DNA of 64,000 nucleotides from Octopus vulgaris (taxonomy: Eukaryota), in contig OX597821.1 in assembly GCA_951406725.2 (NCBI GenBank), positions 113,026,001 to 113,090,000 of the forward strand. Direction: 5' to 3'. Position numbers and translations under genes: made by a program. Position 1 is the stretch's first letter, and the number at the start of each line of letters is the position of its first letter. The notes beneath the pieces were generated by a model. It was not told the DNA's origin, did no database searches, and was given only the letters and a program-made list of their open reading frames with translations. Below are positions 10,102 to 58,043 of this stretch, one piece after another.

Positions 10102-10450
10102 AAGAGATAATGGTGTCATTGAGACCCAAAGGTGCTGAATAAGTGCTATAGACAGACCATAGTTAAGTTCCAGGTTTGGTGATTTTGCGAATAAAGGGTT
10201 CAACGTTGGTTTTATGTCAGCGTGTGTATATATGAATTTTTTGCGTAATGAGAAAAAAAACAACGAGGCTGTATAGATATTAGAGCATTGATAGATAGGT
10301 CTTACAGCTGTTTCTAGAATATTAATTAATAATAAAATCCCTTCATCAGAGACGGTGTGAGAGGAAAATTTAAGTCATAGTTAGTTTCGATGTGATATAA
10401 ATAGAGATTGAGGTGGTGGAAAGAAAATAGATGTAAGATATGTATGGTTA
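10102..10450 (-). mobile_element. Putative Penelope-like terminal-repeat remnant carrying a hammerhead ribozyme, between (TA)n tracts
   Basis: Bounded by (TA)n at 10061-10101 and 10450-10463; contains the hammerhead at 10299-10353; no RT or GIY-YIG ORF visible. Confidence 0.55.
10299..10353 (-). ncRNA. Minimal type-I hammerhead ribozyme motif (core intact)
   Basis: GUCU CUGAUGA AGGGAU...AUUCUA GAAAC AGCU GUA|AGAC; stem I GUCU/AGAC, palindromic stem III ACAGCUGU. Confidence 0.75.
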
Positions 10451-11061
10451 TATATATATATATAATCATCATCATTGTTTAACGTCCATCTTCTGTGTAT
10501 GCATGGATACAATGGCTGATCGGAGCCGGCCATGTAGAAAAAACTACACTAGGCTACTGTCTCTGTTTTGGCAGGCATTTTACAGCTGGATGCCCTTCCT
10601 ACCACCAGATTCACTCACAAGGCTTTGGTTGGTTGGACCAAAGCTATTGTAGAAGAAACTTGCCCAAGGTTCCACACACTTGCCCAGGTTCAGTGGGACT
10701 GAACCTGGAACGATGTGGTATGCAGGAGGGTAATTATTTTAGCTAGCCTAATGAATGAAAAGAATTCTCTGTGAATACTAGCAAAACTTGTGCAGTACCA
10801 ATAATCTAAAATAATCCGGAAGTTTGTTCCAAGTGTTTATATTATTTAATGGATTAATTAGCCATTTATCTGTCACCAATTAGTGCCAAGCTGTGGAAAA
10901 TTCCATAAGTGATAAATGTTTAGTTTTGTGGTTAATGACTTGGAATAAAGTGTATTTCAAGAGATTAATTGAATATAATGCGTTTCTATGTTCTTCTGTA
11001 TCATCATCATTTGATAAATAATAAAATGTGCATACAATCATATATGTGTGTGTGTATTAAT

Positions 11062-11107
<46 letters not shown>

Positions 11108-11129
11108 GTATATCTATTTGCACATGCAT

Positions 11130-11420
11130 AATCATCATCATCATCGTTTAACGTCTGCTTTCCATGCTGGCATGGGTTGGACGGTTTGACTGAGTACTGG
11201 TGAGCCAGAAGGCTGCACCGGGCTCAACCTGATCTGGCAAAGTTTCTACAGCTGGATGCCCTTCCTAATGCCAACTACTCCGAGAGTGTAGTGGGTGCTT
11301 TTATGTGCCACCGGCACGGGAGCCAATCCGTGGCCCTGGCAACAATCACGCCCAGATGTGCTCTTAACGTTCCACTGGTATGAGTACCAATCAGGCAGTA
11401 CTGTCATTGGCCACATCAGC
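11130..11420 (-). mobile_element. RTE LINE 3' UTR fragment
   Basis: (CAT)n GTTTAACGTC...CTGGATGCCCTTCCTAA; homologous to the 3' UTR at 18400-18752. Confidence 0.8.
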
Positions 11421-11494
<74 letters not shown>

Positions 11495-11971
11495 TATAAC
11501 TCCATACATTCACATAAATGAGTTGTCAATGTTTTCGAGGCATAACGAGATAGTGAAAGAATCATAGCATTTATCTTTTGATATGGATGTCAAGGAGACC
11601 GGCAAATAATGAATCCAGCCAAAATATAGTTAAATAAGCTATTACAGCCTAAGCCAAATATTAATTATATAGGATATATAAAGAAGTTTCATTCTAAATT
11701 AACAGCTGTCACAGAATTCTAGCTCTCTTTGATAAATGAATATATTTTCACTAGATTTGCAAAACTCATGGATGCTTGTGCCAGCCCCCTGATTTTAAGG
11801 ATACCCTACCCTCTGATAAATAGCAACAAAAAGAAGTGCATCATATATGTATCACATTTATTTTTGTAAAATTGCACGCCTAATTTAGTGTTAAATCTTG
11901 GTTCCAAATTTATTCCCTTCATAGTGCCTGGAATATGCCGCACCTTAGGTTTCTCTCTTAAAATCAAGTAT

Positions 11972-12334
11972 AAAACAAGAGCCCTCAGAGAGCACAAACC
12001 TCTGCCAAAGCAACACCAATGTCCTCTCAACGATTTGCCAGAGAGGATTTTTAAAATGAGAATATCTGAAATAAACTCGACTGCTCTCACAAATGAGAAT
12101 ACTAGAAATGAACCTCTCAAAAATTAAGTAAAAAAAAAACAGGAAAAATAATCCATAATTCTTGTCCGGTACCAGATCGATCCCAAAATTTAATCAGTTC
12201 ATGCCAGTCATGAGGCCATTCATCCCTGAAAGTTTCATTCAAATCCATCCTGTGATTCTTGAGATATTTTGTCCATGGACAAACAAACATGACTGAAAAC
12301 AATACCTTCACCTTCGCTAAGGTGGAGGTAATAA
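11972..12334 (-). mobile_element. Non-autonomous Helentron/Helitron2 (HINE, DINE-1-like) element
   Basis: On - strand TTATTACCTCCACC...GTTTGTTTGT...GGATTTGAATGAAACTTT...GGCAGAGGT subterminal inverted repeat, 3' hairpin GCTCTCTGAGGGC, T-run end. Confidence 0.75.
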
Positions 12335-12567
12335 TGCAACTTATATATGAATACGGTGTGTGTGTGTGTGTGTCATCATTTGATGGTTGTAAACGAGCAT
12401 CATTGTCACATAAGCAATGTCCATGTCCAATCTGCCATGAAAATATGTCCAGACATGTAGAAATATTGCCTTGCTTGGATGGAATATAGTGAGGGTTGGC
12501 AACAGGGAAAGCATCCAGCTGTAGAAAACTTGCCTCAACAAGGCAGCCGGATTCCCTTTAGCTTCTA

Positions 12568-12899
12568 CTGTATTTGATGGCGTATAACATGCACCTTTTT
12601 GGACCCAAAAGTGGATTTAAAAATCCCCCTGAGTCCAATGCACTCATTGTAGGCTCAAAATTCTCTCAAAATGGTATGTTCACAAAACATGTGCTGCCAT
12701 CTGTTGGTGAATAATTGCCTATTGTATGTTCATATTGAATGTGGATGCAATAAATTGCTTATAATTACCAGTAATAACATAAAGTTATACAGATAGGTTG
12801 AGGAATTAAAACATTTTAGTGGTAATTTATTGTACAAAGTATAGCCTAGTTTAGGGTGCATCCTGTGCACTCATGTACCTTATAGGCCATCAAATATGG
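12568..12899. mobile_element. Tc1/mariner (Tc2/pogo-like) MITE
   Basis: TA|CTGTATTTGATGGCGTATAA ... TTATAGGCCATCAAATATGG|TA; 20-bp TIR and TA TSD. Confidence 0.8.
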
Positions 12900-13207
12900 T
12901 ACTTTTCCATGTAAGCATGGAAAAGCAAATTTTAAAGCGATATGTGCATGTGTACACTTACCATGTAAAAAGCTGGTGTCACTTAAAGTGCACCCAGTAC
13001 ACTTTGTAAAGTGGTTAGCATTAGGAAGAGCATCCGGCCATAGAAACCTTGCCAAAACAATGGAACCTGGTGTGACCTCTGGCATTACCATTCAACCCAT
13101 GCCAGCACAGAAAACGGAAATTAAATGACGATGATGTTGATATTCTCACAGATGGTGTATTCTTGTAATCTGTGTCTGCCTTCAGCTTAATGGTTAACAC
13201 TAACATA

Positions 13208-13439
13208 GGCAGTGAGCTGGCAGAAACGTTAGCACGCCGGGCGAAATACGTAGCCGTACTTCATCTGCTACTACGTTCTGAGTTCAAATTCCGCCAAGGT
13301 TGACTTTGCCTTTCATCCTTTTGGGGGTCGATAAATTAAATACCAGTTACGCACTGGGGTCGATGTAATTGACTTAATCCATTTGTCTGTCCTTGTTTGT
13401 CCCCTCTGTGTTTAGTCCCTGGTGAGTAGTAACGAAATA
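13208..13439 (+). mobile_element. Full-length SINE family 1, tail type 1b
   Basis: A/B boxes; TSD GGTTAACACTAAC at 13192-13204 and 13440-13452. Confidence 0.9.
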
Positions 13440-13735
13440 GGTTAACACTAACGTGGCATTTAACCTATAGATTTGCAGGTAAACAAAGGAACTCATAGTT
13501 GTATATATTGATTCTTCTTCACCTGTGAAACATGTAATTGATTGTTGAATCATTGAAGGTAAAGTATTAGTGTGCCAACAGTTTGTGTTATATCTACATG
13601 ACTTTTGACAGTGTTGTTAAATATTATTATTGATAAATAAATATCTTCCAAAATAGGGTATTGTATATGGCAATGTGCCTTGAACCCTAGGAGGTCTTTA
13701 TCAGAATTTAAAACACTGAACTAGTTGTCTTACAG

Positions 13736-13834
13736 GTTGATGGTTATTTAGAACAAAAGTTGACAAACTTCTTGAATGATCAACCTCTTCATGAAATCAT
13801 TCTCAGCTTGTCAACTCCCCCACTCCAATCATGA
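13736..13834 (+). CDS. Weak candidate terminal coding exon VDGYLEQKLTNFLNDQPLHEIILSLSTPPLQS*
   Basis: TTGTCTTACAG|G acceptor followed by 32 open codons in unique sequence; no family recognised; may be chance. Confidence 0.12.
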   Translation, partial: VDGYLEQKLTNFLNDQPLHEIILSLSTPPLQS

Positions 13835-14009
13835 TGTAGATTTCTGTAATCAGATCAATAAGTATAATTATTAATTAAAACAGAATTTTCTTGATTTAAA
13901 AGCAATAATTCCTTTGTTCTTTTGTGTCATTACCAGTTTTTCATAAGAAATTTAGTGAAAATATTTTTTTTTTTTAAATTGATAAAAAACAATAAAAATT
14001 CAGTCATAT

Positions 14010-14370
14010 TATCTTTTACTACTTTCTGTTATCAGACTGTGGCCATGCTGGGGCACTGCCTTGAACAATTTTTAGCCAAATGAATTGACCCTAGTAATTA
14101 TTCTTTTAAGCCAGGTATTTATTCTATTTGCCACTTTTGCCAAACTACTAAGTTACAGGGACATAAATAAGCCAACACTGGTTGTCAGGCAGTGGTGGCA
14201 ACAAACAGACACGATGAGCTTCTTTCAGTTTCCATCTATCAAATCCACTTAAAAGGTTTTGGTTGGTCTGAGGCTATGGCAGAAGACTCTTTCCCAAGGT
14301 GCCACACAGTGGAACTGAACTCAGAACCATGTGGTTGGGAAGCAAGCTTCGTACCATACAGCCACTCCTA
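14010..14370 (-). mobile_element. SINE family 2
   Basis: Reverse-complement match to the family 2 pattern. Confidence 0.75.
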
Positions 14371-14709
14371 CATCTGCGACTTCATAATTGTAAACTAGGC
14401 ACATACATATATGTGTGTGTGTGTGTGTATTTGTGTGTTTATGTGTGAATTGTTCTCATTTATCTATATGATATTGTTGTTTAATCTTCTGCCTAAGAAC
14501 TGTCAATTATAAGTGAACTGCTCCCATTTCTATGGACTGTGTGACATTCTTATTGAGGGCAAATATTTTCTTCGCAACACATAAAACTTATTGTAGTTGA
14601 CCTCATTTTTACTTCAGTGCTTTAAACTTTTGTTATTTAGCCCCAGGCTGGCCTTGAGATCCAGCTAGTCCAACTATTGCCATCTTGTCTTTTTCCTTGG
14701 CATCTCTTT

Positions 14710-14916
14710 CTCTTTTATCTCTTTTACTTTGTTTCAGTCATTTGACTGTGGCCATGCTGGAGCACCGCCTTTAGTCAAGCAAATCGACCCCGGGACTTAT
14801 TCTTTGTAGGCCCAGTACTTATTCTATCGGTCTCTTTTGCCGAACCACTAAGTGACGGCGACGTAAACACACCAGCATTGGTTGTCAAGCAATGCTAGGG
14901 GGACAAACACAAACAG

Positions 14917-14995
<79 letters not shown>

Positions 14996-15150
14996 ACAGG
15001 CTTCTTTCAGTTTCCGTCTACCAAATTCACTCACAAGGCTTTGGTTGGCCCGAGGCTATAGTAGAAGACACTTGCCCAAGATGCCACGCAGTGGGACTGA
15101 ACCCAGAACCATGCAGTTGGCAAGCAAGCTACTTACTACACAGCCACTCT
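14710..15150 (-). mobile_element. Young full-length SINE family 2 with expanded internal (TA)n
   Basis: TTTCAGTCATTTGACTGTGGCCATGCTGGAGCACC tail, (CA)n(TA)n interior, head ending ACACAGCCACTC. Confidence 0.9.
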
Positions 15151-16324
15151 TGCACCCAGAGAACTATTACATTGTCAAAATTGCTCATGTTTCGTAAAAC
15201 AGTAAGGTGTCATTTGAAGGAGATTTGACTGTTATTTCTAGAAGATCAAATAATCACCTAGAGGTTTCCTTGTTGGCTTATGGTATATTAAGTTTATTAG
15301 AAGAGTAAACAGTTTAACCCTGTCTTTTATAATAATTATTTTTGGAGGGTTTTATTCCAATATCGCAAATCTATTATGATTAAGAATTATTGCTGTTAGA
15401 ACTCTTTTCCATTTTTCATTGTGACAAACTACAATGGAAGCATCGTATTATAACATTATTCTAAGATAAAAGATTTAATTACTTTGTCAAACATTTGTCT
15501 TATCGTTGCTGTCGTTTCTTGCCTGTAATGTTTATGAAGGACCAAAGCATTTAGACCAAGTTTCTCTTCCAATTAAAACCTTATTAGATGACTTCAAAGA
15601 CTGCATTTCTGAAGAGCAGCAGGAAAAAAAAAAAATGTAAAATATGCCAAAAACACATTCTAGTGAATAGCAGACCATAGCAGCAGCACCATTACAAATT
15701 TGACAAACTTTAAAAATTAAAAGGAAAAAAAACCCAAAAAAGTAAAAAAAAAAAAAAAAAAAAAGCTATGGTGTTTGATGAAGTAAACACTCTGCTGTTG
15801 TTTTTAATCTTTGTTGTTGTTGTTATTATTGTCTTTTATTTGAAATTTGAAAAGTTTGTTGAAGTGAATTAAACGAATTGAGAAGAAAACAAAAAAAAAC
15901 AATAGAAGAATATGGAAGTTTGAAGATGAGAAAGAAATTTTATAAAGAAAAAGAAAGGAAATTATTGGAGCATGAAGAAGTGGAATGGAAATAATCAGAG
16001 TTCAACTAAGATTTGTTCTTCAATGAGTGCTATGTTTTCGGATTATAAAATTTATAGGCATTTCTTTATTCCAAAGACTCCACCTTCAAGTGTTTTCATG
16101 ACTAAGGATTATTATTTTCCTCCCTTTAAATATTCTATTATAAGGAATGGTTTTTATTTTCCCTTTGTTTCCATTCACATTATTGAATTTTTACCTTTAG
16201 AATATGAGCCTTTGTAACCTTCTGGTAATTTTCTGTGAAAAAAAAAATTGGCAAAATTTGATGGCACTCAAAAAAAAAAATATTTAGTTTTCTTTCCTTA
16301 TATTTGTTGGGAGATATTACATAG

Positions 16325-16800
16325 TCATCTCTATCATTAAACGTCCACTTTTCCATGCTTCCATAGGCCAGATGGAATTTGTTGAGGTCAATTTATCTCT
16401 GGCTGGATGCTCTTCCTCTTACCAACCATTATCTGTTTCCCATGTAAGGTAATATTTCTCTATGGCCAGACATAATTTTTCACAGAAAATTGAAAATGAA
16501 CAACATGCTTACTTACAACCATCACTAGGGTATATAGAAGCATGCATACTCACACTCACCCTTGAAACAGCTGTAAACATATGGAATAAATATCTACTCT
16601 CTCACCTTACTTCTCTTATCTGTTATGTACATGTGTGGATGACAGGCTTCTTTCAGTTTCCCTCTTCCAAATTCATTCACAAGGCTTTAGTCAACCAATG
16701 CTATAGTAGAAGACACTTTCCCAAGGTGTTACACAGTGGGACTGAACCTGAAACTATGTGGCTAGCAAGCAAACTTCCTAACCACACAGCCATGCCTGCA
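16325..16800 (-). mobile_element. SINE family 2R (family 2 head with RTE-like tail)
   Basis: Family 2 head at 16640-16800; tail CATTAAACGTCCACTTTTCCATGCTT...GGATGCTCTTCC at 16335-16420. Confidence 0.7.
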
Positions 16801-17989
16801 TCTAATTCTTTTAAGGAATGTAAATGAATTCATTTCACATTTTAGAATACAAGTGTGAATTTATGAGCTTTAGGTCAATATTGTTATACATTAGCTCATC
16901 TCGCCTAATGTGTGTGTGTGTGTGTGTGTGTGTGTCTGTCTGTCTGTGAGAGCAAAACCAAATCTCTGTTACATTACAAGTGTTGCTATCAATTATTCTA
17001 TTAGATTGTTGTCCGAGTGCCGAACAAAACAAGCACTTATCTTGCAAACCCATTAGTTACAACAGACTTTTAACAAAATAACCCAGCAGCTTCTCTTGAT
17101 GCTTCAGTGATTCACCAAAATTGATCAACACTGATGTTTAATCCAATTTTTATTATTTAATCCATTTTTACAAAACCTAACAAGAGCAGAAGGCTTTATT
17201 ATTTTTTTCAATATCTTTTGTTTTTTTTTTTTATTTTTACCATTTCTTTCCCCCCTCACCATGAAGATTATCAGCCATTGTTATTTTTCTTTGTTTTTAT
17301 TTTTCTCTTCATCTTCATCTTCATCATTGATTTTCAACTACTTTCACCAAATAGCATGGTTTATATATTTTTTTTAAAATTATTCTTGGATACAATTTGT
17401 CTATAAGCAATATAGCAATGTTTTTGTTGTTTGATTTTTTTTTTTATAATGTAACTTGTATTTCGTTAGTATTGATTTTGCAATTTAGTTGTGTGTGTGT
17501 GGGTGGGGTGGGGGTAAGACGTGGCAAGAGGGCTATAGTTTACTGGTAAACTTTTACTGATGCATATACCGTTTCTTTATATGATGCGGAAACAGCCTTA
17601 TATAAATGTGATTATATCTTTGGATGTGTGATTAATCTCTAAATCTTTTCTTTTTTTTAATCAATTTTAGATATTTTTTTTCTGTTTTTCTTCTTTTTGC
17701 AATTTTCTGTTTACAAATTGGTTTTGGATGATCTAATAAATATTTCGATTATTTGGTATCATTGCAAAGATCAGTTTAATGATTCAAAATTGGCGATTGC
17801 AATTCTTTATTCAAGTATTGGCATTTAGAGATAGATCTTTACTTCGTTTAAGGTTCCAGGGTTGTTGTAAATCAACAGTTGATATTTATCAGTTTAACCT
17901 TTTCATTGCCATATTCAAATATGCTGCCTTTGTTTTAATTAATTTTGAAAATAACGAAGAATTTAATTAAATAATTTTGTCATTATCAG

Positions 17990-18752
17990 TCTAGGCTCAA
18001 AAGAAATGAATCTAGTATGATCCGCTGGATGTGTAATGTCAGTGTGCACACACGACAGAGTGTAAGCGTCCTGAGAGAAATGTTGGATGTAAGAAGCTTC
18101 AGATGTGGTGTGCAAGAGAGACGCTTGCGATGGTATGGTCATGTACTGCAAATGGACAAGGAGAGCTGTGTGAAGAAGGGCTGCTCCCAAACAGTTGAAG
18201 GAATCCGGGGTAGAGGTAAACCCAGGAAGACATGGGATGAGGTGGTCAAGCATGACCTTTGAACATTGGGCCTCACAGAGGCAATGATGAAAGACCAAAA
18301 CCTCTGGGGATATGCTGTGACTGTGAAGACCCTGCAAATAAAGTGAGTTCACAGCTGTAACCTACATCAGTTTCGCATAACCAACCTCAGCCCACTCAAA
18401 ATTACCTTAGATCGTAGGGCGACATGTTGTGCTCGAGGAGACCTATTGAGTCAAGTACATCAAAATGAAAATCAAATGGAAATTGTAGTTGTGATCCCCG
18501 TGCTGGTGGCACGTAAAAAGCACCATCCAAGCGTGGTCGATGCCAATGCCGCCTTGACTGGCTTCTGTGCCAGTGGCATGTAAAAAGCACCCACTAACTC
18601 TCGGAGTGGTTGGCATTAGGAAGGGCATCAAGCTGTAGAAACATTGCCAGATCAGATTGGAGCCTGGTGCAGCCACTGGCTCTCCAGAGCTCAGTCAAAT
18701 CGTCCAACCCATGCCAGCATGGAAAACAGACGTTAAACGATGATGATGATGA
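17990..18752 (+). mobile_element. 5'-truncated RTE-clade LINE (ORF C-terminus, 3' UTR, (GAT)n tail)
   Basis: ORF 18017-18262 MIRWMC...RRLRWYGHV...RGRGKPRKTWDEVVKHDL is a typical RTE C-terminus and runs into the abundant (GAT)n-tailed repeat. Confidence 0.9.
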
Positions 18753-19285
18753 TTTCTGTTGAAGTACACTGCTCTTGTTTCAATTAATTTTGGAAATAAC
18801 GAAGAATTTAGTATAATAATTTTGTCATTATGAAGCTGGTGTTTAGAACAAATTATCATGGAATTTTGATGGAAGGTTTTAATTTAAATCACTTAAACAA
18901 TTTTGAACCATCCAATCTGTGCCAACATGGGAAATAGGTATTCAAGAATAATAAAGGCAATGATTTCTGTTTAATTTAATTCATTTCAAAACAGGAAATT
19001 TGTTTTCTGGAATCAAGAGCAGTCTCGGGTTAGTTGGTATGGAAACTGGCAGAAACGTTAGCATGTCGGGCGAAATGCTTAGCGGTATTTTGCCTGCCAC
19101 TACATTCTGAGTTCAAATTCCACCGAGGTCGACTTTGCTTTCATCCTTTTGGGGGTCGATTAAATAAGTACCAATTACACACTGGGGTCGATATAACCGA
19201 CTTGATCCATTTGTCTGTCCTTGTTTGTCCTCTCTGTGTTTAGCCCCTTGTGAGTAGTAAAGAAATAGGTATGGAAAGAGTTAAA
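18753..19285. mobile_element. piggyBac-like MITE segments carrying a nested SINE
   Basis: Body matches the 6611/20362 MITE; ends GGTATGGAAAGAG|TTAA. Confidence 0.65.
19046..19267 (+). mobile_element. SINE family 1, tail 1b
   Basis: 10-bp TSD GGTATGGAAA (19036-19045 and 19268-19277). Confidence 0.9.
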
Positions 19286-21463: not shown

Positions 21464-21507
<44 letters not shown>

Positions 21508-21509
<2 letters not shown>

Positions 21510-21792
21510 GAGGCACAATGGCCCAGTGGTTAGGGTAGCGGACTCGCGGTTTCGATTCCCAGACTGGGCGTTGTGAGTGTTTATTGAGCGAAAACACCTA
21601 AAAGCTCCACGAGGCTCCGGCAGAGGGTGGTGATCCCTGCTGTACTCTTTCGCCACAACTTTCTCTCACTCTTTCTTCTGTTGGCCTGCTCGCTTAGCCA
21701 GTGGGGTGCCGTCATTCGAAGGCTAAAACAATGCGAATGCATTGTGACCAGTGATATGTAACTACATCTGATGGACTGGTCGGTCACGTGAT
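21508..21792 (+). mobile_element. SINE family 3 variant inserted in (TA)n
   Basis: TGGCCCAGTGGTTAG...GGTTTCGATTCCC head; tail differs from the 8781 copy; (TA)n on both sides. Confidence 0.8.
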
Positions 21793-21914
21793 ATATATAT
21801 ATATATTGGTAAAAACGGTAAGATAACAAAAGAAAGAAAGAGACCTCAATATTATGGAAATAGACGAAATTTATCTGTAAAATTTATTTTTTTCATAGCG
21901 TTTTTCAGATGGCC

Positions 21915-21977
21915 AGATAACCGAAGAGATGGTGGTATAGATTTCCACCTCGGCATCTGAAACTCAGAGTTTTATCT
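21915..21977 (+). ncRNA. Hammerhead ribozyme motif (core variant CCGAAGA)
   Basis: AGAUAA CCGAAGA GAU-GGUGG..CCACC..AUC U GAAAC UCAGA GUU|UUAUCU. Confidence 0.6.
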
Positions 21978-22037
21978 TGGCTACCGAATAATTGTCACAT
22001 TATTTTACAGATATATATATATACACACAAACACATA

Positions 22038-22315: not shown

Positions 22316-22317
22316 GC

Positions 22318-29215: not shown

Positions 29216-29455
29216 CAGGGTCGCCCAAAGTAGGTTTACAGTTATCACGTAGGCACTTCAAATTTCTTTTAAAACATTTTATTACATTTAAATTTCTATC
29301 TTACAATCACATTGTTTATTCACATCTTAAACAGGCGATGCTTAATCTCTCAGATGCTCAAAATGTCCTCCTTCAACATTGCAATATTCTTCAAACCTCT
29401 TCAGAACACTCTGACACACAGTGTAGCACAAATTCCGATCTTCATCAATTTCAAC
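29216..29455 (-). mobile_element. Tc1/mariner 3' end with transposase C-terminus
   Basis: TA|CAGGGTCGCCCAAAGTAGG terminus; 29455-29342 (-) reads VEIDEDRNLCYTVCQSVLKRFEEYCNVEGGHFEHLRD*, a GGHFEHL-type C-terminal motif. Confidence 0.8.
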
Positions 29456-29565
29456 TATATATATAATATTAATAATATGACAACAAAAGAATGAATGAGA
29501 CCTCGATATTATGTAAACAGAGGAATTTATCTATAATATAATGTGTAACAGTAAGTCGGTTGCCA

Positions 29566-29628
29566 TAATAAAACTCAGAGTTTCAGATGTCGGGGCGGAA
29601 TTCTGCTCCGGCATCTTGTCAGTTATTA
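29566..29628 (-). ncRNA. Hammerhead ribozyme motif (core CUGACAA, likely decayed CUGACGA)
   Basis: UAAUAA CUGACAA GAUGCCGG..CCGACAUC U GAAAC UCUGA GUU|UUAUUA; homologous to the 21915 copy. Confidence 0.6.
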
Positions 29629-29747
29629 AGACAAGCAAAATTGCTATGAAAATGACCATTAAATAAAGGGAAATTACTATGAAGATGATCGTTGTTAAGA
29701 TAAACAAAAGAGCTATGAGAATGACCATTAAATAAAGGGAAATTACC
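29623..29747. repeat. About 69-bp tandem duplication next to the hammerhead
   Basis: GCTATGA(A/G)AATGACCATTAAATAAAGGGAAATTAC occurs twice. Confidence 0.8.
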
Positions 29748-30927
29748 TGAATAGGGAGAAAGTATATACATAATATATATACATATATAAATATATATTT
29801 GCAAGAATTTTATATATGTGTATATGTGTGTATATAAAATTCTTGCAAACTGCATAATGGCCTCACTAGTGCTGGGGGCATCAAAAAAAAAAAAGGGCTC
29901 AGTAAGCCGGTTGGCATTAGGAAGAACCTCCAACCATAGAAACCCTTCCAAAGCCAACACTGGAGCATAATGCTGTCCTTGGGCCCGTCGGGTTCTGTCA
30001 AACCATCCAACATATGCCAGCATGGAACATGGACACTAAATGATGATAGTGATAACTGGTTTCTTACAGTATACATCTGTCAAATCAATCCACACATGTC
30101 TTTAGTCGGCCCAAGTCTCTTGTAGAAGACACTTGCCCAAGGTGCTTTGCCGTGGGACTGAACCTGAAACCATGTGGTCCAGAAACCAAGCATGTAAACA
30201 TACATGAAGTGAAGAACAACATAGAGAAATAGAATATAAATTGTGTACATACATTGTTTATAGTGGTGGTGATGGTGGTGGTGGTGGTGGTGGTGGTAGT
30301 AAAGCTATTTGGAAAAGGATGTAACCATATTTAAGTTAAGGTTCTGATAACAAAGAACATTCTGACTTTTCTAATGGCAAAGAGACCTGTGAACAACATT
30401 GTTGAATTACTTTCCTTATCAGTGACCATACTTCAAAAAAAAAAAATATATATATATATATGGTTATTGTACAAATGTAACTAAACGGATGAATAAATGC
30501 ATTATGGAAGACCTGACAGACAAAGATAAAGTATATTGTGTACATGCATTGATTCATTGTGTGAAAGAATGAAAGAACTGATACTTAGAGGAAGATCTGT
30601 GTGAGTGGCAGTGAGAGGAGGAGTTAAAACAATTATCTGGGTTTCCTTAAAAGTATTGATCTGCTACTATATATGTGTGTGTGTGTGTGTATATATATAT
30701 ATGTATGTGTGTGTGTGTGTATAACCATTTTGTGTATCAATTATCTCAGTGAAGAAGAAAAATCAATAATCATCTCATTGCATAATGAAAACACACACAC
30801 ATACATGTGTGTGTATATATATAAATATGTGTGTGTATATATATAAATATATATGTGTGTGTGTGTGTGTGTATATATATATACATACACATTGTGGTGC
30901 AGTACATTCATGGTTATATCATATAAT

Positions 30928-32737: not shown

Positions 32738-33324
32738 CATTTAATGTTCGACTTCCATGCTGGCATGGGTGGGACAGTTTTACAGGAGCTGGAGAGGCAG
32801 AAGCCTGCACCAGACTTCTGTGACTGTTTTGGCAGGATTTTTACAGCTGGGTGCCTTTCCAAACACCAACCACCCAGGAGAGTGGACTTAGTACTTTTTA
32901 TGTTGGACAAGCACAGGTGAGGCCAATGTATATATCCTCATTATTTAATGTCTATTTTCCATATATTTTATGCAATGTAGAACAATAATCAATTCATTGC
33001 ACATAAATTTTTATGACAAAACATTGTATGGACCCACCCCCAAAGCCTTTGTCTTTCTCTTCGATAACACTGGTGGCATGGAGATGGGATACCGGCATGC
33101 ATGGGTGAATGCAGGTCTTCCATAAACAACCTTGCCCGCACTTGTGCCTGGGAGGGTAACTTCCTAGGTGCAATCCCATGGTCAGTCATGACCGAAGGGG
33201 GTCTCAGCAGCATATATATAATTAATAAAAAAAAAAATGAAGAAAAAATATAAGCAAAAACAACAATTCGAGGACGTGGTACATGCAAAGTATTAGCAGA
33301 CACTCAGGGAAAGAAAGAAAGGTA

Positions 33325-33359
33325 GTTTTACATTTCGAGCAAAACTCTTCTTCAGAAAC
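33325..33359 (-). ncRNA. Minimal hammerhead motif lacking a stem III loop
   Basis: GUUU CUGAAGA AGAGU UUU GCUC GAAAU GUA|AAAC; GAAAU probably CpG-decayed GAAAC. Confidence 0.65.
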
Positions 33360-34009
33360 AGGAGACAGAGAAAAGGAAGATAGAGGAAAAAATCACCAAT
33401 GGTCCACATGTAGTTACATGCATGTGTGTGTGCACATGTATACACACACACATACATCTATATGGTTAAAAAAAAAGAGTACAGATCAATACTCCTTTGG
33501 CCTTTGTGTCAACAATCTGTTATCAGCGCTCCACCCCCAAAAACAAAGACAATAAGTAAATATATAAATAAATGAATAAAAAGTTGCCATGACGATTATT
33601 AACTAACGAATTCCAAAATCTCATATCTCTTTGCCATGCCATATATTTGATTAAGCCTGATATGAAGAGGTTTAACGGGATGTGTGTGTATATATGTGTG
33701 TGTGTGTGTAAGAGATAGTCTTAAAATCTATGTCACCTCTCAGTCTATTAACCATACAAACTAGTTTTATTGATACCTCGTTAGAGAAGGATGTTGTCTC
33801 AATCAGAATAATTTGTAATTAATCCCCATTTAGAGATGAAGACATGTTGCTCCCAAATAGATTAGGTAATGCCATGTATGTGTATGTATGTGTGTATAGA
33901 TGAACTTGGATGTGTGTGTGAGCATGTATACATAGATATATATTTATATAATAGTGAGAAAGAGATGTATGCATATATCTATGTATTTATATAAATCTGT
34001 GTGTTTGAG

Positions 34010-36816: not shown

Positions 36817-37216
36817 TATATATACTGTGCTGGTACCACATCATGCGAAAAGTGCCTAGTCCACTCTGTAAAGTGGTTGGCATTAGGAAGGGCATCCAGC
36901 CATAGAAACCATGACAAAACAGACACCTGGAGCCTGGTGCAGCCCTCAGGCTTGTTAGCTCCTGTCAAACTATCCAACCCATGCCAGCATGGAAAACACA
37001 TGTTAAATGATGATGATAATGTGGTATGTATTGTGTGTGTATGTATTTAGTATTTAGTATTTTTTCACCCTTGTTTTTTCCCACAATGTGTTTTGGATCA
37101 ACTTATTTCTCGGCTACGTCTACCCCAACTTGCAGCCATTTACAGTTATTTCTTTAAAATTAGTTTCCCAATCAGCTTTCAATGTTTGTTCAGTGAACCC
37201 GTGTCTACAAAATATT

Positions 37217-37430
37217 CTTTTCTACTCTAGGCATAAGGCCCGAAATTTTTAGAGAGGGGCCAGTTGATTAGATCAACTCCAGTACACAACTGGTACTTAA
37301 TTTATCAACCCCGAAAGGATGAAAGGCAATGTTGACCTTGGTGGAATTTGAACTCGGAACGTAAAGACAGACAAAATAGTGCTACGCATTTTGCCCAGTA
37401 TGCTAACATTTCTGCCAGCTCAGCGCTTTA
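37217..37430 (-). mobile_element. SINE family 1, tail 1a
   Basis: 16-bp TSD GTGTCTACAAAATATT (37201-37216 and 37431-37446). Confidence 0.9.
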
Positions 37431-37494: not shown

Positions 37495-37545
37495 TCACAA
37501 CCATCTGACGAACATTCACGTGAAACTCTGAGTAACAATTTGTGA
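37495..37545 (+). ncRNA. Hammerhead motif with intact core and decayed proximal stem I
   Basis: UCACAA CCAU CUGACGA AC-AUUCAC-GU GAAAC UCUGA GUA|ACAAU UUGUGA. Confidence 0.55.
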
Positions 37546-37579: not shown

Positions 37580-37615
37580 CTTTCTGTCGAAGAGCATAGA
37601 TTCAAAACATCAAAG
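37580..37615 (+). ncRNA. Degenerate minimal hammerhead motif (33325 type)
   Basis: CUUU CUGUCGA AGAGC..AUUC AAAAC AUC|AAAG; stem I intact, core mutated. Confidence 0.35.
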
Positions 37616-43224: not shown

Positions 43225-43605
43225 TGAAAAGAGCCTCTACTGTTTCCACATAAATAAGACCCATGTTGGGACCACATAAGAGGCACCAATGGTGGCACCA
43301 CATAAGAAGCATCTGTACTGATTCCGCATAAAAATCACCTGTGTTGGTGCTACATAAAAAGCACCCATGCTGGTACCACATACAAAGCATATGTACTGGT
43401 TCCACATAGGAAGCTCTTGTGCTGCTTCCACATAAAAAGCACCCAATACACTCCATAAAGTGATTGGCATTGGGAAGGGCATCCAGCCATAGAAACCATG
43501 CCAAAACAGACAATTAGAGCCAGGCGCTGTTCTCCAGCATGCTAACTCCTTGTCAAATCATCCAACTCATACCACTATGAAAAACGGATATTAAATGATA
43601 ATGGT
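43225..43605 (+). mobile_element. RTE 3' end with about eight 25-27-bp internal tandem units
   Basis: Units like AAAAGCACCCATGCTGGTACCACAT precede GGAAGGGCATCCAGCC...ATTAAATGAT. Confidence 0.7.
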
Positions 43606-50328: not shown

Positions 50329-50722
50329 TCTCTATATATATAAAGCTGAAGTTGTCTGTGTATGGCAGGTTTGGTAGCCTTCAACTAACACTATCTCCTC
50401 CGAGACCCTTCGGCACAAGTTGACCAAAATTGAGAGTATGATAGAAGAAGGCTTGCTCTTCCTACTGTAGAAGAAAAAAATTCAAATCAGACCATGTTAA
50501 CACCAAAAATTATTTACATCAAAAAGGTGCTTTTTTTTCTATGAAAATCCCTATTTTTTACGATTTTTTTACTGCTATGTCGTCATTTTTCGGTGTATTT
50601 CAACCAGGAAAATGTTCACTTAAAGAGAATAACAAGCTACAAAATGCAAAATTTTTACTTTTCAAAAATTCCAATTCTAAAGGGTCAAAACAAACCCGAG
50701 CAATGCCGGGCAATACTGCTAG
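50329..50722 (+). mobile_element. Non-autonomous Helitron
   Basis: A|TCTCTATATATATAAAG 5' end; 3' hairpin CCCGAGCAATGCCGGG, then CTAG|T; A/T target and no TSD. Confidence 0.88.
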
Positions 50723-51045
50723 TTAGCTATAAGCTATTTTCTCGATAATAGATGCCAAGTATAACCTAGCAGTGACATCAACAATTTCAAGAACAAAAAA
50801 ACTGCTTCAATTCACTGCATTCTAAATTTCTTCATGGCTGTGTGTCTGTGTGTGTCTCTGTGTGTGTGTGTGTACAATTTTGCTTTCCAGCTATATGATT
50901 CTGGGTTCAGCCCTGCTGTATGGCACCTTGCATAGGTGCTCTTTCTTTCTCCAGCTAAGAGGTAAAAATTTCAATTAGGAATTTTATTTTAAACAGCTTT
51001 AAGTAATCATGCATTAATTTATTAATATGCAGGATATGACAATAA

Positions 51046-51642
51046 GGCAGCAGGCTGGCAGAAACGTTAGCACACCGGGCAAAATGCTTAGTGGTATTTC
51101 ATCTGTTTTTACGTTCTGAGTTCAAATTCCGTCGAGGTCGACTTTGCCTTTCATTCTTTCGGGGTCGATTAAATAAGTACCAGTTATGCACTGGGGTTGA
51201 TATAATCGACTTAATCCGTTTGTCTGTCCTTGTTTGTCCTCTCTGTGTTTAGCCCCTTGTGGGTAATAAAGAAATAGGTATTTCATCTGTCTTTACATTC
51301 TGAGTTCAAATTCTGCCGAATTCAGATTTGCCTTTCATCCTTTTGCAGTTGATAAATTAAGTACTAGTTGCATACTGGGGTTGATCTAATCGACTGGCTC
51401 CCTTACCAACAATTTCGGGTCTTGTGCCTAGAGTAGAAAAGAATATTTTTAGGGTGGTGAGCTGGCAGAATTGTTAGCACGCTGGGTGAAATGCATAGCG
51501 GTATTTTGTCTTTACATCCTGAGTTCAAATTCTGCTGAGGTCAGCTTTGCCTTTCATCCTTTCAGAGTTAATAAATTAAGTACCAGTTGCATACTGGGTT
51601 GATCTAATCGAATGGCCCCCTCCCCCAAAATTTCAGGCCTCT
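51046..51642 (+). mobile_element. Nested/tandem SINE family 1 cluster (1b within 1a, then 1a)
   Basis: After tail 1b (AAAGAAATA) the sequence restarts at the internal GGTATTTCATCTG. Confidence 0.85.
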
Positions 51643-51671
51643 TTCTTTGGTGTTTGGAATATAAATTAACA

Positions 51672-52078
51672 TTTCTTTTACTTATTTCAGTCATTTGACT
51701 GTGGCCATGCTGGAGCACCACCTTTAGTCAAAAAAATCGACCCCAGGACTTATTCTTTATATACCTAGTACTTATTCTATCGGTCTCTTTTGCTGAACTG
51801 CTAAGTTACATGGACGTAAATGCACCAGCATCGGTTGTCAAGCGATGGTGGGGGGACAAACACAGACACAAACAAATACACACATATTTACATACATATA
51901 TATGTATGTATACACGACGGGCTTCTTTCAGTTTCCGTCTACCAAATCCACTCACAAGGTTTTGGTCAGCCCTAGGCTATAGTAGAAGACACCTGCCCAA
52001 GGTGCCACACAGTGGGACTGAACCTAGAACCTTGTGGTTGGTAAGCAAGCTACTTACCACACACCCCCACTCCTGTGC
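51672..52078 (-). mobile_element. SINE family 2
   Basis: Full pattern. Confidence 0.88.
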
Positions 52079-52669
52079 CTCTATATACACATACACACAT
52101 ATATGAGAGAGAGAGAAAGAAAGAGAGAGATTGGTAGATAGATATCATAAAGAGATTTGTTATTGTAGTGAATTGACAATCTACAATTTCTTCCAGAGAA
52201 TATTATCTCGACACTCTTTCCTTTTGTTGCTTTGTTATGGACTTTATTGATTAACATTTTCCGGGTTACCTTTTGTTTATAGTAACCTTGGTTACGAGTT
52301 AGGAGGAGCTTCTCTCTATTTACAATAGGGTTTTACCTTCTTTTTTTGCCATCTGTATTTCTTTCCTCCTCTGCCTTTCCTCCTGTGTGTGCTGCTGATA
52401 GCTGGTGGTCCAAGCGAATGGCTAACATACAGCAGATGGTTAGCTGGTTGTAGCTAAGTATTATGTCCAGGTATGTTAGATAGCTTGTATTGAATTGAAA
52501 TCTCAGTACAATTGTGTGTATGTCTGCCTCTCATTATGTATGTGTTTGTGCTAGTGTGTGTGTCTGTGTAAGTGAATATGTATGTCTCTGTATGTGTGTG
52601 GTTGTATGTTTCTGATTTCTTTCTGAAACATTTTTTTCAAGTTCATGATTTTACTGATTACATGCTTTA

Positions 52670-53622
52670 AACCCTTTATTACAATGTTTGTCAAAATATT
52701 CTGCCTTTGTTTCTATTAATTATTTCGGTTAAAATACGCCGCCTTTGTTTTGTTTCAATTAAATTTTTTAAATAACGAAAAATTTAGTAAAGTAACTTTG
52801 TCATTATTAAGTTGATGTTTGGAACATAAATTAGCACGAAACTTTGAATGAAGGTTTTCATTGTAGATCACTTTAACCCTTTTGTAAACATATTTGTGTC
52901 AAAATACACCACCATCATCATCATCATCATTGTCGTTTAACATCCGCTTTCCATCTAGAATGGATTGGATGATTTGACTGAGGACTGGCGAACCAGATGG
53001 CTGCGCCAGGCTCCAATCTGATCTGGCAGAGTTTCTACAGCTGGATGCCATTTCCTAACGCCAACCACTCCGAGAGTGTAGTGGGTGCTTTCTACATGCC
53101 ATGCCACCGGCACGGGGCCCAGTCAGGCAGTACTGGCAATGGCCACATCAAGTGGTGTTTTTTACATGCCACCTGCACAGGAGACAGTCCAGTGGCACTG
53201 GCAACGACCTCGCTCGAATGCTTCTTTACGTGTCATGGGCACAAGTGCCAGTAAGGCAATGCTGGTAACGATCATGCTTAAATGATGCTTTTTACATGCC
53301 ATCAGCATGGAAGCCAGTCACCTGCTCTGGCAGCGATCACGCTCGAATGGTGCTCTTAGCGCTCCACTGGCACAGGTGCCAGTCATCGAATTTGCAAATT
53401 TGGTTTGATTTTGATTTCAATTGCCTCAACAGGTCTTTGCAGGCTATTTCAATTATTTTGAAAATAAAGAACAATTTAAGTAAAATAACTCATTATTTAT
53501 CTGGTGCTTGGAACTTAGATAAAAATGAAATTTTGATAGGTTTTAATTTAAATTACTTTAAAACAAGAAATTTGTATCGTAGTACCAAGGGTGGTCTCAG
53601 GTGGGTTTGTATGGAAAGGGTT
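52670..53622. mobile_element. Stacked piggyBac-like MITEs with an antisense RTE 3' end (52910-53440) inside
   Basis: CCCTTT starts near 52672 and 52877, end ATGGAAAGGG; (CAT)n-led RTE UTR with five about 63-bp units. Confidence 0.75.
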
Positions 53623-54087
53623 GAAGACCAGCTAGTGTCTGATTGGGAGACAACTCCAATGAGGTGGGCATGTGATGTGAGTGAACGATGAATGTGGAGT
53701 GAAAAACAGATGTGTGTGCTGGCAGAGGAATGAAGATTGGAATAAATGAAAAGGAAGGAATGGTGATGTTCGAACTCAAGAAGTGCCAGTTGAGAAGTAA
53801 AGAGGTACAAAGCTGGGTATGCTGTAGATTACATGGATACCCCAGCTGGAAATAAAAAAAAGGAGAGTGACTTAGCGAGTTAGATAAAGCAAGTGATAAT
53901 GAGAAAGATGATGGTGAAGATAGGTGATTGGTAGAGACTGTAGGCAGGGAAAAGATAGTGAGAAGTGGTTGGGTGGGGGATGAAAAGTAACTGATAAAGC
54001 CTGTGGATGTAGTAAGTATTTATTCTGCTGTCAGGTGGTGGTGATGATGATGATGATGATGATAATAATAATAATAATAATAATAAT

Positions 54088-54540
54088 CTTTTCTACTAAA
54101 GGAACAAGGCCTGAAATTTTGGGGTAGGGGACTAGTCGATTACATCGACCCCCAGTGTATAACTGGTATATAATTTATCAACCCCAAAAGGATGAAAGGC
54201 AAAGTTGACCCCAGTGGCATTTGAACTCAGAACGTCAAGACAGATGAAAGACTGCTAAGCATTTCGCCCGGTGTGCTAAAGTTTCTACCAGGTTGCTGCC
54301 TTAAGGCTTATAAATATTCTTTTCTTCTCTAAGAACAAGGCCCGAAATTTTTGGGGAGTGGTGTGGGGGCCAGTCGATTACACCGACCCCAGTGTTTCAC
54401 TGGTACTTAATTTATTGACCCAGAAAGGATGAAGGGCAAAGTTGACCACGGCAGAATTTGAACTCAGAATATAAAGATAGATGAAATACCACTAAGCATT
54501 TTGCCCGGCGTGCTACCATTTCTGTTAGCTCGCTGCCTTG
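54088..54540 (-). mobile_element. Two tandem SINE family 1 (1a) copies
   Basis: Reverse-complement matches next to (AAT)n. Confidence 0.85.
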
Positions 54541-54617
54541 TCATGTGTTAATACTAAAAAATGTTTTATGTTTTGGCACAAGGTCAGCAGTTTTAAGGAT
54601 AAAAATCAATTATATCT

Positions 54618-54985
54618 AACCACATAGTTCCGGGTTCAGTCCCACTGTGTGGTACCTTGGCAAAGTGTCTTCTACTATAGCCTCAGGTCGACCAACGCCT
54701 TGTGAGTGGATTTGGTTGATGGAAACTGAAAGAAGCCCATTGTATGTATATATATATATGTGTGTGTGAGTGTGTTTGTGTGTGTGTTTGTCACCCCACC
54801 GTCACTTGACAACCGATGTTGGTGTGTTTACGTCCCTGTAACTTAGTGGTTCAGCAAATGAGACTGATAGATTAAGTACTAGGCTTACAAAGAATAAGTC
54901 CTGGGGGGTCGATTTGCTTGACTAAAGGTGGCGCTCCAGCATGGCTATAGTTAAATGACTGAAACAAGTAACAGAATAAAAGAAT
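54618..54985 (+). mobile_element. SINE family 2
   Basis: Pattern match, slightly 5'-truncated. Confidence 0.85.
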
Positions 54986-55135
54986 ACCAATTTCAGTACT
55001 CAACAAAGTCAGCCCAAGAAGAATTTGACCAGCAGAAGAATTTAAAGATGGATGAAATACCATTAAGTATTTTGTCCTGTGCTGCAACGATTCAGCAAAG
55101 TCCCTACCTTAATAACAACAACAATAACAACAATG

Positions 55136-55181
<46 letters not shown>

Positions 55182-55183
<2 letters not shown>

Positions 55184-55690
55184 GGCAAGCTGGCAGAATG
55201 GTTAGCAATCTGGATGAAGTGCTTAGTGGTATTTCATCCATCCTTGTGTTCAGAGTTCAAATTCCTCTGTGGTTGACTCTGTCTTTCATCCTTTCAGGGT
55301 TGATAAATTAAGTACCAGTTAAATGATGGGGGTCAATGTAATCGACTACTCCCCTCCTCCAAAATTTCAGGCCTTATGCCTTTAGAAGAAATTATTACTG
55401 TTGTTATTATTATTATTATTTTTATTATTATTATTATTATTATTAATGATATTAATATTATTATTATTATTATTATTATTGATAGTGAAGTCAAGGTGAC
55501 ATTAACACTCTGGGCAAATTGTTTAGCAGCATTTCGTCTGTCTTCATGTTCTGAGTTCAAATTCCACCAAGGATGACTCTGCTTTTCATCCCTTCGGGTT
55601 CAATAAATTAAGGACCACTTAATTACATCAACCAGCCCCTTCCTGCAAAATTTCAGACCTTGTACCTGTAGCAGCAGAAAGGATTTATTA
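55182..55690 (+). mobile_element. Two SINE family 1 copies separated by (ATT)n
   Basis: A/B boxes and TTTCATCC core twice. Confidence 0.8.
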
Positions 55691-56034
55691 CTAGAGAAGT
55701 CTTTTGCTTCTACTGAAACACTACGATTTCAATATTAATATTCATTTTTCTTTTTGTTTTTTGTTTTTTGATGTCTGGTGTGATTTCTTCTATTAGTATT
55801 GAATTATAGGTTTCTCTTATCAAAACTCATCAAGGACAAACCCACTTTACCTGATTTATCCTGTTTGTTCTCCACTTCAATATTATTCCCAGCTAATTGT
55901 TTCACCTCTATTTCCATACAACTGACTAACTCTGTTTCTAATAAGGTGTTGTCTACGTGCATTAATTATATCCACTTTCGTAACGGTCTCTTTACTTTGT
56001 TATCCAGTCAAATGTATTATATATATATATATAC

Positions 56035-56502
56035 AGGTGCAGGAGTGGCTGTGTGGTAAGAAGCTTGTTTCCAAACCACATGGTTCTGGGTTCAGTCCCA
56101 CTGCATGGCACCTTGGGCAAGTGTCTTCTACTATAGCCTTGGACTGACCAAAGCCTTGTGAGTGGATTTGGTAGACGGAAACTGAAAGAAGCCTGTCATG
56201 TATATGTGTATATGTGTGTGTGTTTGTGTGTATATATATATATGTGTATATATATATGTGTGTGTGTGTGTATATATATATATACTTATGTATGTATTTG
56301 TGTGTCTGTGTTTGTCACCGACCATCGCTTGACAACCGATGTTGGAGGGTTTACATCCCCATAACTTAGCAGTTCAGCAAAAGAAACCGATAGAATAAGA
56401 ACTAGGCTTATAAGAATAAGTCCTGGAGTCAATTTGTTCGACTAAAAGCGGTGCTCCAGCAAGGCCACAGTCAAATGACTTAAACAAGTAAAATAGTAAA
56501 AA
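56035..56502 (+). mobile_element. Full-length SINE family 2
   Basis: GGTGCAGGAGTGGCTGTGTGGTAAG head, long (TA/TG) interior, CAGTCAAATGACT tail. Confidence 0.9.
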
Positions 56503-56517
56503 ATATATGTGTGTATA

Positions 56518-56820
56518 TGAAGGTACATGGCTTAGTGGTTATGGTGTTGCATTCACAATTGCAAGATTGCGGGTTCAATTCCCAGACTGGGTACTGCATT
56601 GTGTTCTTGTGCAAAATACTTCATTTCACATTGCTGTGCAATCATTTCGTCACCTGAGATGCGGCACACGTTGCACCTGCACGGGTAATGTCGATTTGAT
56701 GGAGGGAGTGAGGTTATGTGAATACAAACATTTGATCACTATAAACAAATTACCTTTGAGGTTGTTCAGCAAGGAATTGCAGAACCATCATACATTGTCT
56801 AACAATGGGAGAGTCCATGA
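56518..56820 (+). mobile_element. tRNA-headed SINE with another tail type
   Basis: TGGCTTAGTGGTTA...GGGTTCAATTCCC, TGTGTTCTTGTGCAAAATACTT; ends in (TA)n. Confidence 0.65.
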
Positions 56821-56917
56821 TATATATATATATGTATATAATGGCGGTGCCCCAGCATGGCCATAGCTCATGAGCTGAAACTGGAAAAATCAAAATCAAA
56901 TCAAAATATATATATAT

Positions 56918-57320
56918 ATCATCATCATCATCATCATTTTAGCGTCCGTTTTCCATGCTAGCATGGGTTGGATATTCATCAGGCCCAGTCATAGTGTTTC
57001 TACGGCTGGATGCCCTTCCTAACGCCAACCTATATATATATATACAAGGTCATCTGCTAGCCTTGTCTGGCACCTGTGTCGGTGGCACATAAAAACACCA
57101 TCCGAGCGTGGCCGTTCGCCAGCTTCGTCTGGCACCTGTGTCGGTGGCACATAAAATCACCCACTACACTCTCGGAGTGGTTGGCGTTAGGAAGGGCATC
57201 CAGCTGTAGAAACACTGCCAGATCTGACTGGCCTGGTGCAGCCTTCGGGCTCCCCAGACCCCAGTTGAACCGTCCAACCCATGCTAGCATGGAAAGCGGA
57301 CGTTAAATGATGATGATGAC
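56918..57320. mobile_element. Two RTE 3' ends in inverted orientation
   Basis: (-) copy 56918-57030 and (+) copy 57055-57320. Confidence 0.75.
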
Positions 57321-57328
57321 GTATGTAA

Positions 57329-57359
<31 letters not shown>

Positions 57360-57368
57360 CGTATGTAA

Positions 57369-57406
<38 letters not shown>

Positions 57407-57408
<2 letters not shown>

Positions 57409-57766
57409 GCACCACTGCATAGTGCCAAGGACTCCAAATTTGCCATCAAGATGTAGGACAAGATACTGCAATAGCCTGGGCTTCAGAGGTCCACAGCTCT
57501 TCAATATCCTCCCGAAGGACCTGAGAGACCTGCATGGGGTGGATGCAAATGTCTTTAAAATAAAGCTGGACCTCTTCCTGTCAGGTTTCCCAGATGAACC
57601 AACTTCACAGCAGGAGGTGCAGATGAGGGCAGCTGCATCAAACTCTCTTATGCACCAAATGTCAATTGCTAAAAAGCATTCGTGAAGTAAAATCATGTAG
57701 CAACACCGAATGGCAGTGCCCCAGCATGGCCACAGCTCATGAGCTGAAACTAAATGAAATGAAAAA
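57407..57766 (+). mobile_element. 5'-truncated CR1-like LINE 3' end in (TA)n
   Basis: Open frame ...NSLGFRGPQLFNILPKDLR...FKIKLDLFLSGFPDEP...AAASNSL resembles a CR1-clade ORF2 C-terminus; short 3' UTR with stem-loop and (TGAAA) tail; mini-copy at 56841-56906. Confidence 0.8.
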
Positions 57767-58000
57767 ATATATATATATATATACTTACATACATATATAT
57801 AAACATACACACATACTCACAAAGATAGAGAGAGAAATGCAGGTATATCAAATACTATGCAACATAAATCCTTGATTTCTTAAAATTATCTCTGTGTCTA
57901 GAGGATGTGTCATAATTACCAAATTGTAATTGAAACCAGCTCTATATAAGAAGGGGAGATAATCTCAGGAATAAAGAATTCTCCAAAGCTGACATGCCGT

Positions 58001-58043
58001 TAATGAACATTTGTTTCTGCCTTAGTTAGGCATCATCAGATTA
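58001..58043 (-). ncRNA. Minimal type-I hammerhead ribozyme motif
   Basis: UAAU CUGAUGA UGCCU-AACUA-AGGCA GAAAC AAAU GUUC AUUA; perfect stems I and II, one extra base near the cleavage site. Confidence 0.65.

Follow-up and report, generated by a model that had tools for sequence, protein, structure and literature searches.

Minimal type I hammerhead ribozymes are known from many animals as parts of Penelope-like elements (PLEs), where they lie in the pseudo-long terminal repeats (pseudo-LTRs) and occur as thousands of mostly single motifs, in truncated elements and with several families per genome; in vitro the monomers are inactive and dimers weakly active (Cervera & De la Pena 2014, PMC4209133). 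According to Craig et al. (2021, PMC8557442), PLEs undergo 5' truncation, leave truncated copies in inverted orientation, bear a tail at one end and target microsatellites. Frangieh et al. (2024, PMC11167929) describe cleavage of AT-rich targets and priming at the tail; the hammerhead of their element requires the element's protein to cleave and is dispensable for insertion. Here, we analyzed a stretch of 64,000 nucleotides from Octopus vulgaris (GenBank assembly GCA_951406725.2, contig OX597821.1, positions 113,026,001 to 113,090,000; hereafter the window), in which an earlier sequence-only reading had flagged seven dispersed hammerhead motifs. At least five of the seven are genuine, mostly mutated hammerhead copies, and they are of the kind already known. 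We consider it highly probable that most of the motifs represent minimal type I hammerheads altered by mutation, likely dead 3'-end fragments (pseudo-LTR plus tail) of three or four PLE families that inserted into TA microsatellites.

Seven hammerhead motifs in the window

All seven motifs were recovered at the place and on the strand given by the sequence-only reading (Table 1), using C3 U4 G5 A6 N7 G8 A9 / G12 A13 A14 A15.1 / U16.1 H17 as the core. The proposed formula of CUGANGA, stem II, GAAA and UH with paired stems was however complete in 33325(-) only. Four motifs retain all core letters (10299, 33325, 37495 and 58001) and three are damaged (21915, 29566 and 37580), and an intact core together with paired stems I and II beside it is confined to 33325 and 58001. 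The latter keeps the three core-adjacent pairs, the unpaired 15.2-16.2 being its sole failure under a strict descriptor. One extra base between positions 9 and 10.1, an A preceding G10.1 in 33325(-), is found in 33325, 37580 and perhaps 10299, a likeness to the PLE minimal hammerheads of PMC4209133. Position 6 of 37580 is U instead of A, seen in this single copy; a family-wide occurrence would make it a natural core variant.

The strict minimal-hammerhead descriptor yielded one match, 33325(-), compared with 0.10 per shuffle, and 6 of 60 shuffles reached a count of one; with longer stems the shuffle mean was 0.017 and a single shuffle of the 60 reached the observed count. To accommodate decay, a tolerant score was also employed, written after the motifs had been seen. 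Its top five matches are 29566 (14.0), 10299 (13.1), 21915 (11.6), 33325 and 58001 (8.5), with the next match at 4.9, and five matches scored at least 8, whereas 40 local dinucleotide shuffles averaged 0.25 such matches and never gave more than one. As a set, the motifs exceed chance with the decay-tolerant score. The same scan of the window disclosed no strong motif beyond these seven.

TATATA lies 39-109 nt downstream of five of the seven; among randomly chosen places, 14.9% have it within 125 nt (P about 0.001, with a threshold chosen afterwards), the distance to the TA run being 57-109 nt for 10299, 33325 and 58001. The 10299 motif sits in an insert of ~215 bp (10235-10448) with TA runs on either side, and 33325 in one of ~180 bp (33222-33400) that ends at (TA)n.

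Stem III forms a perfect 8-bp palindrome in 10299(-). The predicted stem III self-duplexes amount to -13.1 kcal/mol for 10299, -9.2 for 21915, -9.7 for 29566, -9.9 for 37495 and -2.7 for 58001, and the 2-nt inserts of 33325 and 37580 are unstable alone. The four copies with self-duplexes of -9 to -13 kcal/mol thus fit the requirement of the dimer model. The full hammerhead fold was the minimum-energy fold in none of the seven stretches. Stem-III-diminished PLE hammerheads that cleave as dimers were reportedly presented by Lunse, Weinberg & Breaker in RNA Biol (cited in PMC6765202), in alignments that may already include cephalopod sequences; by this description, the motifs here resemble them in the palindromic short stem III and the dimer model.

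Of the at least four unrelated contexts that the sequence-only reading had assigned, several families remain, but 21915 and 29566 belong to one of them (family A), 37495 carries the 12-nt GAAA/stem III stretch of family A, and the 33325 and 37580 elements align weakly (E 0.33). The elements of 33325, 37580 and perhaps 10299 make up a looser group, 58001 is alone, and through their likeness to other copies 37495 and 37580 are retained as probable relics. The latter two, of different families, are separated by ~80 nt on one strand, and their stem III stretches are not complementary. The loss of the 37495 tail directly after stem I suggests that one of the two had inserted into the other.

Table 1. 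Hammerhead motifs and family A pieces, in positions of the window
Positions	Strand	Feature	Details
10299..10353	-	Minimal type I hammerhead relic	Core letters intact, stem I 4 bp, closing pair of stem II lost
21807..21884	-	Family A 3' end (tail)	Ends in (TA)n at 21790-21806; 80% identical to 29456-29539
21885..22013	+	Family A inverted 5'-truncated piece with hammerhead	Ends in (TA)n; 12-nt stretch duplicated in the tail piece
21911..21981	+	Family A hammerhead relic	U4 -> C, long stem I, odd-length palindromic stem III, GUU site
29466..29764	-	Family A element	33-bp imperfect tandem repeats, hammerhead, ~105-nt 3' part ending at (TA)n
29561..29633	-	Family A hammerhead relic	G8 -> A and C11.1 -> U (both CpG sites), GUU site
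33325..33359	-	Complete-looking minimal hammerhead	Stems I and II 4 bp each, 2-nt UG palindromic stem III, GUA site
37495..37545	+	Weak relic	Core letters intact, stem I unpaired after the first pair, stem II 2 bp
37580..37615	+	Weak relic	G12 -> A, U at position 6; distant likeness to the 33325 element
58001..58043	-	Hammerhead, core letters intact	Stem II 5 bp, stem I 4 bp, irregular stem III, flanked by TA-rich runs

Family A in the window and in related species

The two family A copies match in two parts that run in opposite orientations, with 76% identity between 21917-22016 and 29626-29525 and 80% between 21796-21883 and 29456-29539. On the basis of these split, mixed-orientation matches to the 29566 copy, we interpret 21807-22013 as a tail plus an opposite-strand hammerhead piece between two (TA)n runs. 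Two stem I pairs are changed on both sides between 21915 and 29566. As in metazoan PLE minimal hammerheads (PMC4209133), the motifs of the window are of type I with a short or palindromic stem III and G10.1-C11.1, fall into several families and are mostly single. Family A however differs from those published forms in several respects: it lacks the extra base between 9 and 10.1 and instead has one bulged base on the 3' side beside C11.1, its stem I of ~10 bp and stem II of ~13 bp (the latter with the bulge beside G10.1-C11.1, as seen in 29566) are long, the site is GUU, and the palindrome is odd in length, i.e. with a central mismatch in the dimer.

To assess the family beyond the window, contigs were aligned at 80% likeness to 29430-29770, using DNA runs of three related species (organisms A, B and E) and an additional run, X15; the copy-number test covers family A only. 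The DNA runs of organisms A, B and E yielded 3012, 3091 and 3079 family A contigs, respectively, and X15, a run guessed to be RNA, yielded 345, which shows neither transcription nor cleavage; nor was a pile-up of ends listed, a pattern that contigs are unable to reveal. Across the hammerhead the summed word depth was 57,000-223,000, as opposed to 47 on the single-copy flank (X1 and X5), a rough ratio of more than 1,000 that does not represent a copy number; the flank at 29430-29441 was uncovered in X9 and X15.

The majority letters restore both damaged positions of the 29566 copy, G8 with 89, 95 and 96% and C11.1 with 77, 75 and 85% of the depth in the three DNA runs. N7 varies in the family A contigs, the other core positions differ nowhere at 15% or above, no indel is present at 15%, and G accounts for 55-59% at the centre of stem III. 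Relative to the majority of X5, the 29566 copy displays 23 differences in about 300 places, G8 among them. For the 21915-type subfamily, U4 is present in all four loose-end consensus rows of this type that are shown, with an agreement of 0.55-0.82, and both X15 rows show CUGAAGA in full. The possibility that family A has a new core, with an additional U preceding G12, was also considered and rejected, the majority having C at this CpG site, which gives G10.1-C11.1 plus a bulge.

The hammerhead is located ~105 nt from the fixed 3' end of family A, where, at either of two places, 28-60 contigs of each DNA run have loose ends that continue as (TA)n. Fifteen of 24 joints are shown, comprising ten strand changes, five skips and no head-to-tail arrangement; each strand change occurs in one contig per run, one of them in two runs, and four have both ends outside the hairpin and the palindrome. 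Upstream of 29681 the depth falls tenfold, which is no proof of truncation, since loose ends there continue into another, shared sequence. The 33-bp imperfect tandem repeats upstream of the hammerhead, at 29638-29744, are part of the family, with contigs extending to 29764. The tail at 29478-29537 (-) is several-fold deeper than the hammerhead in all four runs, with peaks of 0.49-1.41 million compared with 0.19-0.22 million in the DNA runs. This may reflect many tail-only insertions, or a tail common to subfamilies with divergent hammerheads.

For family A we thus found neither single-copy flanks nor a lack of excess over shuffled sequence, two of the outcomes named as speaking against the sequence-only reading. 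Its dense, multi-family population of ribozyme-bearing elements is retained in that there are several families, with family A at very high copy in three species and with a canonical majority core. The elements were however not shown to be non-autonomous rather than 5'-truncated copies of coding PLEs, as no parent was found either way, and the masters may be coding PLEs or short non-autonomous derivatives.

Probable Penelope-like ends and rival explanations

We infer dead PLE-type ends from the match of the measured features to the published PLE anatomy: a hammerhead close to the 3' end with a tail behind it, inverted 5'-truncated copies with a tail at one end, and AT-rich or microsatellite targets. 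The link to PLEs in the sequence-only reading agrees with this anatomy. Specifically, 5' truncation, an inverted truncated copy beside a sense copy, the one-end tail and the AT-rich/(TA)n targets are shared with endonuclease-containing (EN+) PLEs such as Neptune, Poseidon, Naiad and Hydra (PMC8557442, PMC11167929), although the part present at one end only is ~65 nt here and 30-40 bp in those described. A Neptune-, Poseidon- or Hydra-type parent appears likelier than Naiad by this analogy, as Naiads lack canonical hammerheads.

Several observations weigh against this interpretation. The covariation of stem I does not surpass its shuffle control (96 of 500 shuffles reach it, with three sequences), and no close second copy of 10299, 33325, 37495, 37580 or 58001 was found within the window. 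Family A lies off the published minimal hammerhead consensus in its long stem I and in having no extra base at 9-10.1. Both 37495, which scored 2.8 and only in another pairing, and 37580, outside the top 25, are at noise level, and neither has TATATA within 1.6 kb downstream. Moreover, a Pfam scan of 478 of 485 non-repeat open reading frames (ORFs) of at least 38 aa, leaving out seven simple-repeat ORFs and ORFs with more than 35% in multi-copy repeats, detected no remnant of a reverse transcriptase (RT) or GIY-YIG endonuclease at the Pfam cut-off, the eight weak matches all being under it, an outcome that truncated ends would lead one to expect. The lack of a flanking ORF is a difference from the PLE hammerheads of PMC4209133. 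A 47-aa frame upstream of the 29566 hammerhead, running through the 33-bp repeats, is also without protein homologue. Considering the lack of an RT or GIY-YIG remnant and of a homologue for this frame, PLE membership rests on anatomy. The minus-strand frame through the repeats, which stops at the core UGA of 29566, was rejected as the end of a parent ORF, having no homologue and not being kept in the 21915 copy.

A plausible sequence of events for PLE ends would begin with a parent element that holds the hammerhead within its terminal repeat. In tandem or partial-tandem transcripts, two hammerheads would pair via the palindromic stem III and cleave weakly, perhaps aided by the element's protein. 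The GIY-YIG endonuclease would then nick AT-rich DNA, and the RT would start copying at the tail; most copies would end within 100-300 nt, and some would be left with a second piece in inverted orientation. Inserted copies would subsequently decay neutrally, CpG sites first. We predict no cleavage for the window copies, since five are defective in or beside the core and the two that look intact are without a partner nearby.

Short hammerhead elements akin to short interspersed nuclear elements (SINEs), moved by a non-PLE retrotransposon in the manner of the Schistosoma hammerhead SINEs, would agree with the lack of a PLE ORF in the window and with the 33-bp repeats, free of any recognisable ORF, upstream of the family A hammerhead. 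We nevertheless regard such an origin as improbable: no poly(A) and no fixed 5' end were seen, the 3' end lies at (TA)n and copies are often inverted, as in PLEs (PMC8557442), and 33325 combines the extra 9-10.1 base and the 2-nt palindrome of the PLE minimal hammerhead consensus (PMC4209133). The sequence-only reading had also raised non-LTR retrozymes. These are likewise non-coding, of type I, a few hundred bases long and derived from PLEs (Cervera & De la Pena 2020, PMC7229834; Li et al. 2026, bioRxiv 10.64898/2026.07.22.740005), our unit lengths of 180-300 bp fall in their range (PMC7229834), and retrozyme monomers are spread evenly over chromosomes and stem from PLE pseudo-LTRs (bioRxiv 10.64898/2026.07.22.740005). 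Yet what defines a retrozyme is a tandem arrangement in which successive units carry hammerheads. In the window, none of the tandem arrays (period up to 500) extends across a hammerhead, none of the joints shown is head-to-tail, and the motifs are minimal rather than canonical type I with loop 1-loop 2 contacts. A tandem organisation was thus not substantiated, and dispersed monomers of tandem retrozymes cycling via circular RNA seem to us quite improbable as a source of the motifs.

Chance in AT-rich, repeat-rich DNA could produce the single strict match, a count that six shuffles equalled, and is possible for 37495 and 37580, which score like shuffles. As a general explanation we deem it exceedingly unlikely in view of the excess with the decay-tolerant score (five against 0.25), and for family A it is refuted by the majority turning canonical at exactly the damaged positions. 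The remaining alternative is that some or all copies are host-used ribozymes that cut intron-containing pre-mRNA, an extension of the earlier suggestion that sense copies could cleave the host transcript. Congruent with such use, 33325(-) and 58001(-) keep all core letters on the same strand, and 64 kb devoid of exons could be a single intron. Conversely, no host domain or exon was detected among the 478 window ORFs at the Pfam cut-off, five of the seven copies would be rejected under the criteria of Perreault et al. (PMC3088659) for the core or its adjacent pairs, the 29566 copy departs from the X5 family majority at 23 places including G8, the full hammerhead fold is never the minimum-energy fold, and no in vitro cleavage was seen with single minimal hammerheads (PMC4209133). 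Host use is therefore very improbable in our assessment. With no exon known in the window and neither intact-looking copy having a close partner there, cleavage of host pre-mRNA is unlikely, and only one or two copies still look complete, which likewise renders cutting of host RNA improbable.

Window setting, novelty and meaning

The window is animal DNA with a G+C content of 38% and no long ORF. Across it, CpG is depleted (observed/expected 0.35, with TpG at 1.34), and repeats that recur inside the window cover 40% of its length. An abundant SINE-like family, at 37211-37430 and at least 15 other places in the window with copies 74-85% identical, makes up ~40% of the window together with other repeats. 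A 26-bp minisatellite with a higher-order period of 78 bp occupies 43238-43445. An AT-rich repeat is present in three copies (58060-58173, 52751-52841 and 18753-18865; 71-73% identical), one of which adjoins the 58001 hammerhead upstream. The 118-aa frame at 57329-57685 (+) resembles the C-terminal end of a protein of a CR1/L2-type long interspersed nuclear element (LINE), and the frame at 17963-18361 resembles the antisense of an RTE-type LINE fragment, both without a Pfam hit. The statement that the motifs are without an ORF holds as far as tested, as none of the 478 ORFs reached the Pfam cut-off.

Rfam returned no hammerhead among 83 matches for the window, four for 33200-33420 and three for 29530-29680; this is no evidence against hammerheads, since the Rfam models cover such minimal forms poorly. 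Pattern scans of public collections gave three viral and two metagenome matches without hammerhead context and none in prokaryotic genomes, and we consider them chance matches. A full-text literature search found no paper devoted to cephalopod hammerheads, and the words 'ribozyme' and 'hammerhead' are absent from the main text of a recent O. vulgaris repeat annotation (PMC13282606). That annotation would miss these elements, as had been proposed, was not shown, as the same curated O. vulgaris work includes the order of Penelope-like elements, assigns recent activity to 31 of its families and reports an expansion at a Jukes-Cantor distance of 0.2 (PMC13282606).

A more far-reaching possibility is that family A is a still-active, non-coding, PLE-mobilised short cephalopod element with more than 1,000 copies per genome and an undescribed hammerhead architecture (a bulged C beside G10.1-C11.1, long stems I and II, a GUU site and a mismatch-centred dimer helix), whose intact intronic copies pair in trans and cut host pre-mRNAs. 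We give this little credence. Neither a new ribozyme class nor a host function is shown.

Taken together, a cephalopod-like genome joins the animals in whose DNA PLE-type minimal hammerheads are widely scattered, with about one relic still recognisable per 10 kb of the window. The hammerhead motif serves as a tag by which short repeats labelled 'unknown' or SINE can be assigned to PLE ends. Furthermore, family A represents a natural structural variant that is suited to testing the dimer or protein-assisted model of cleavage.

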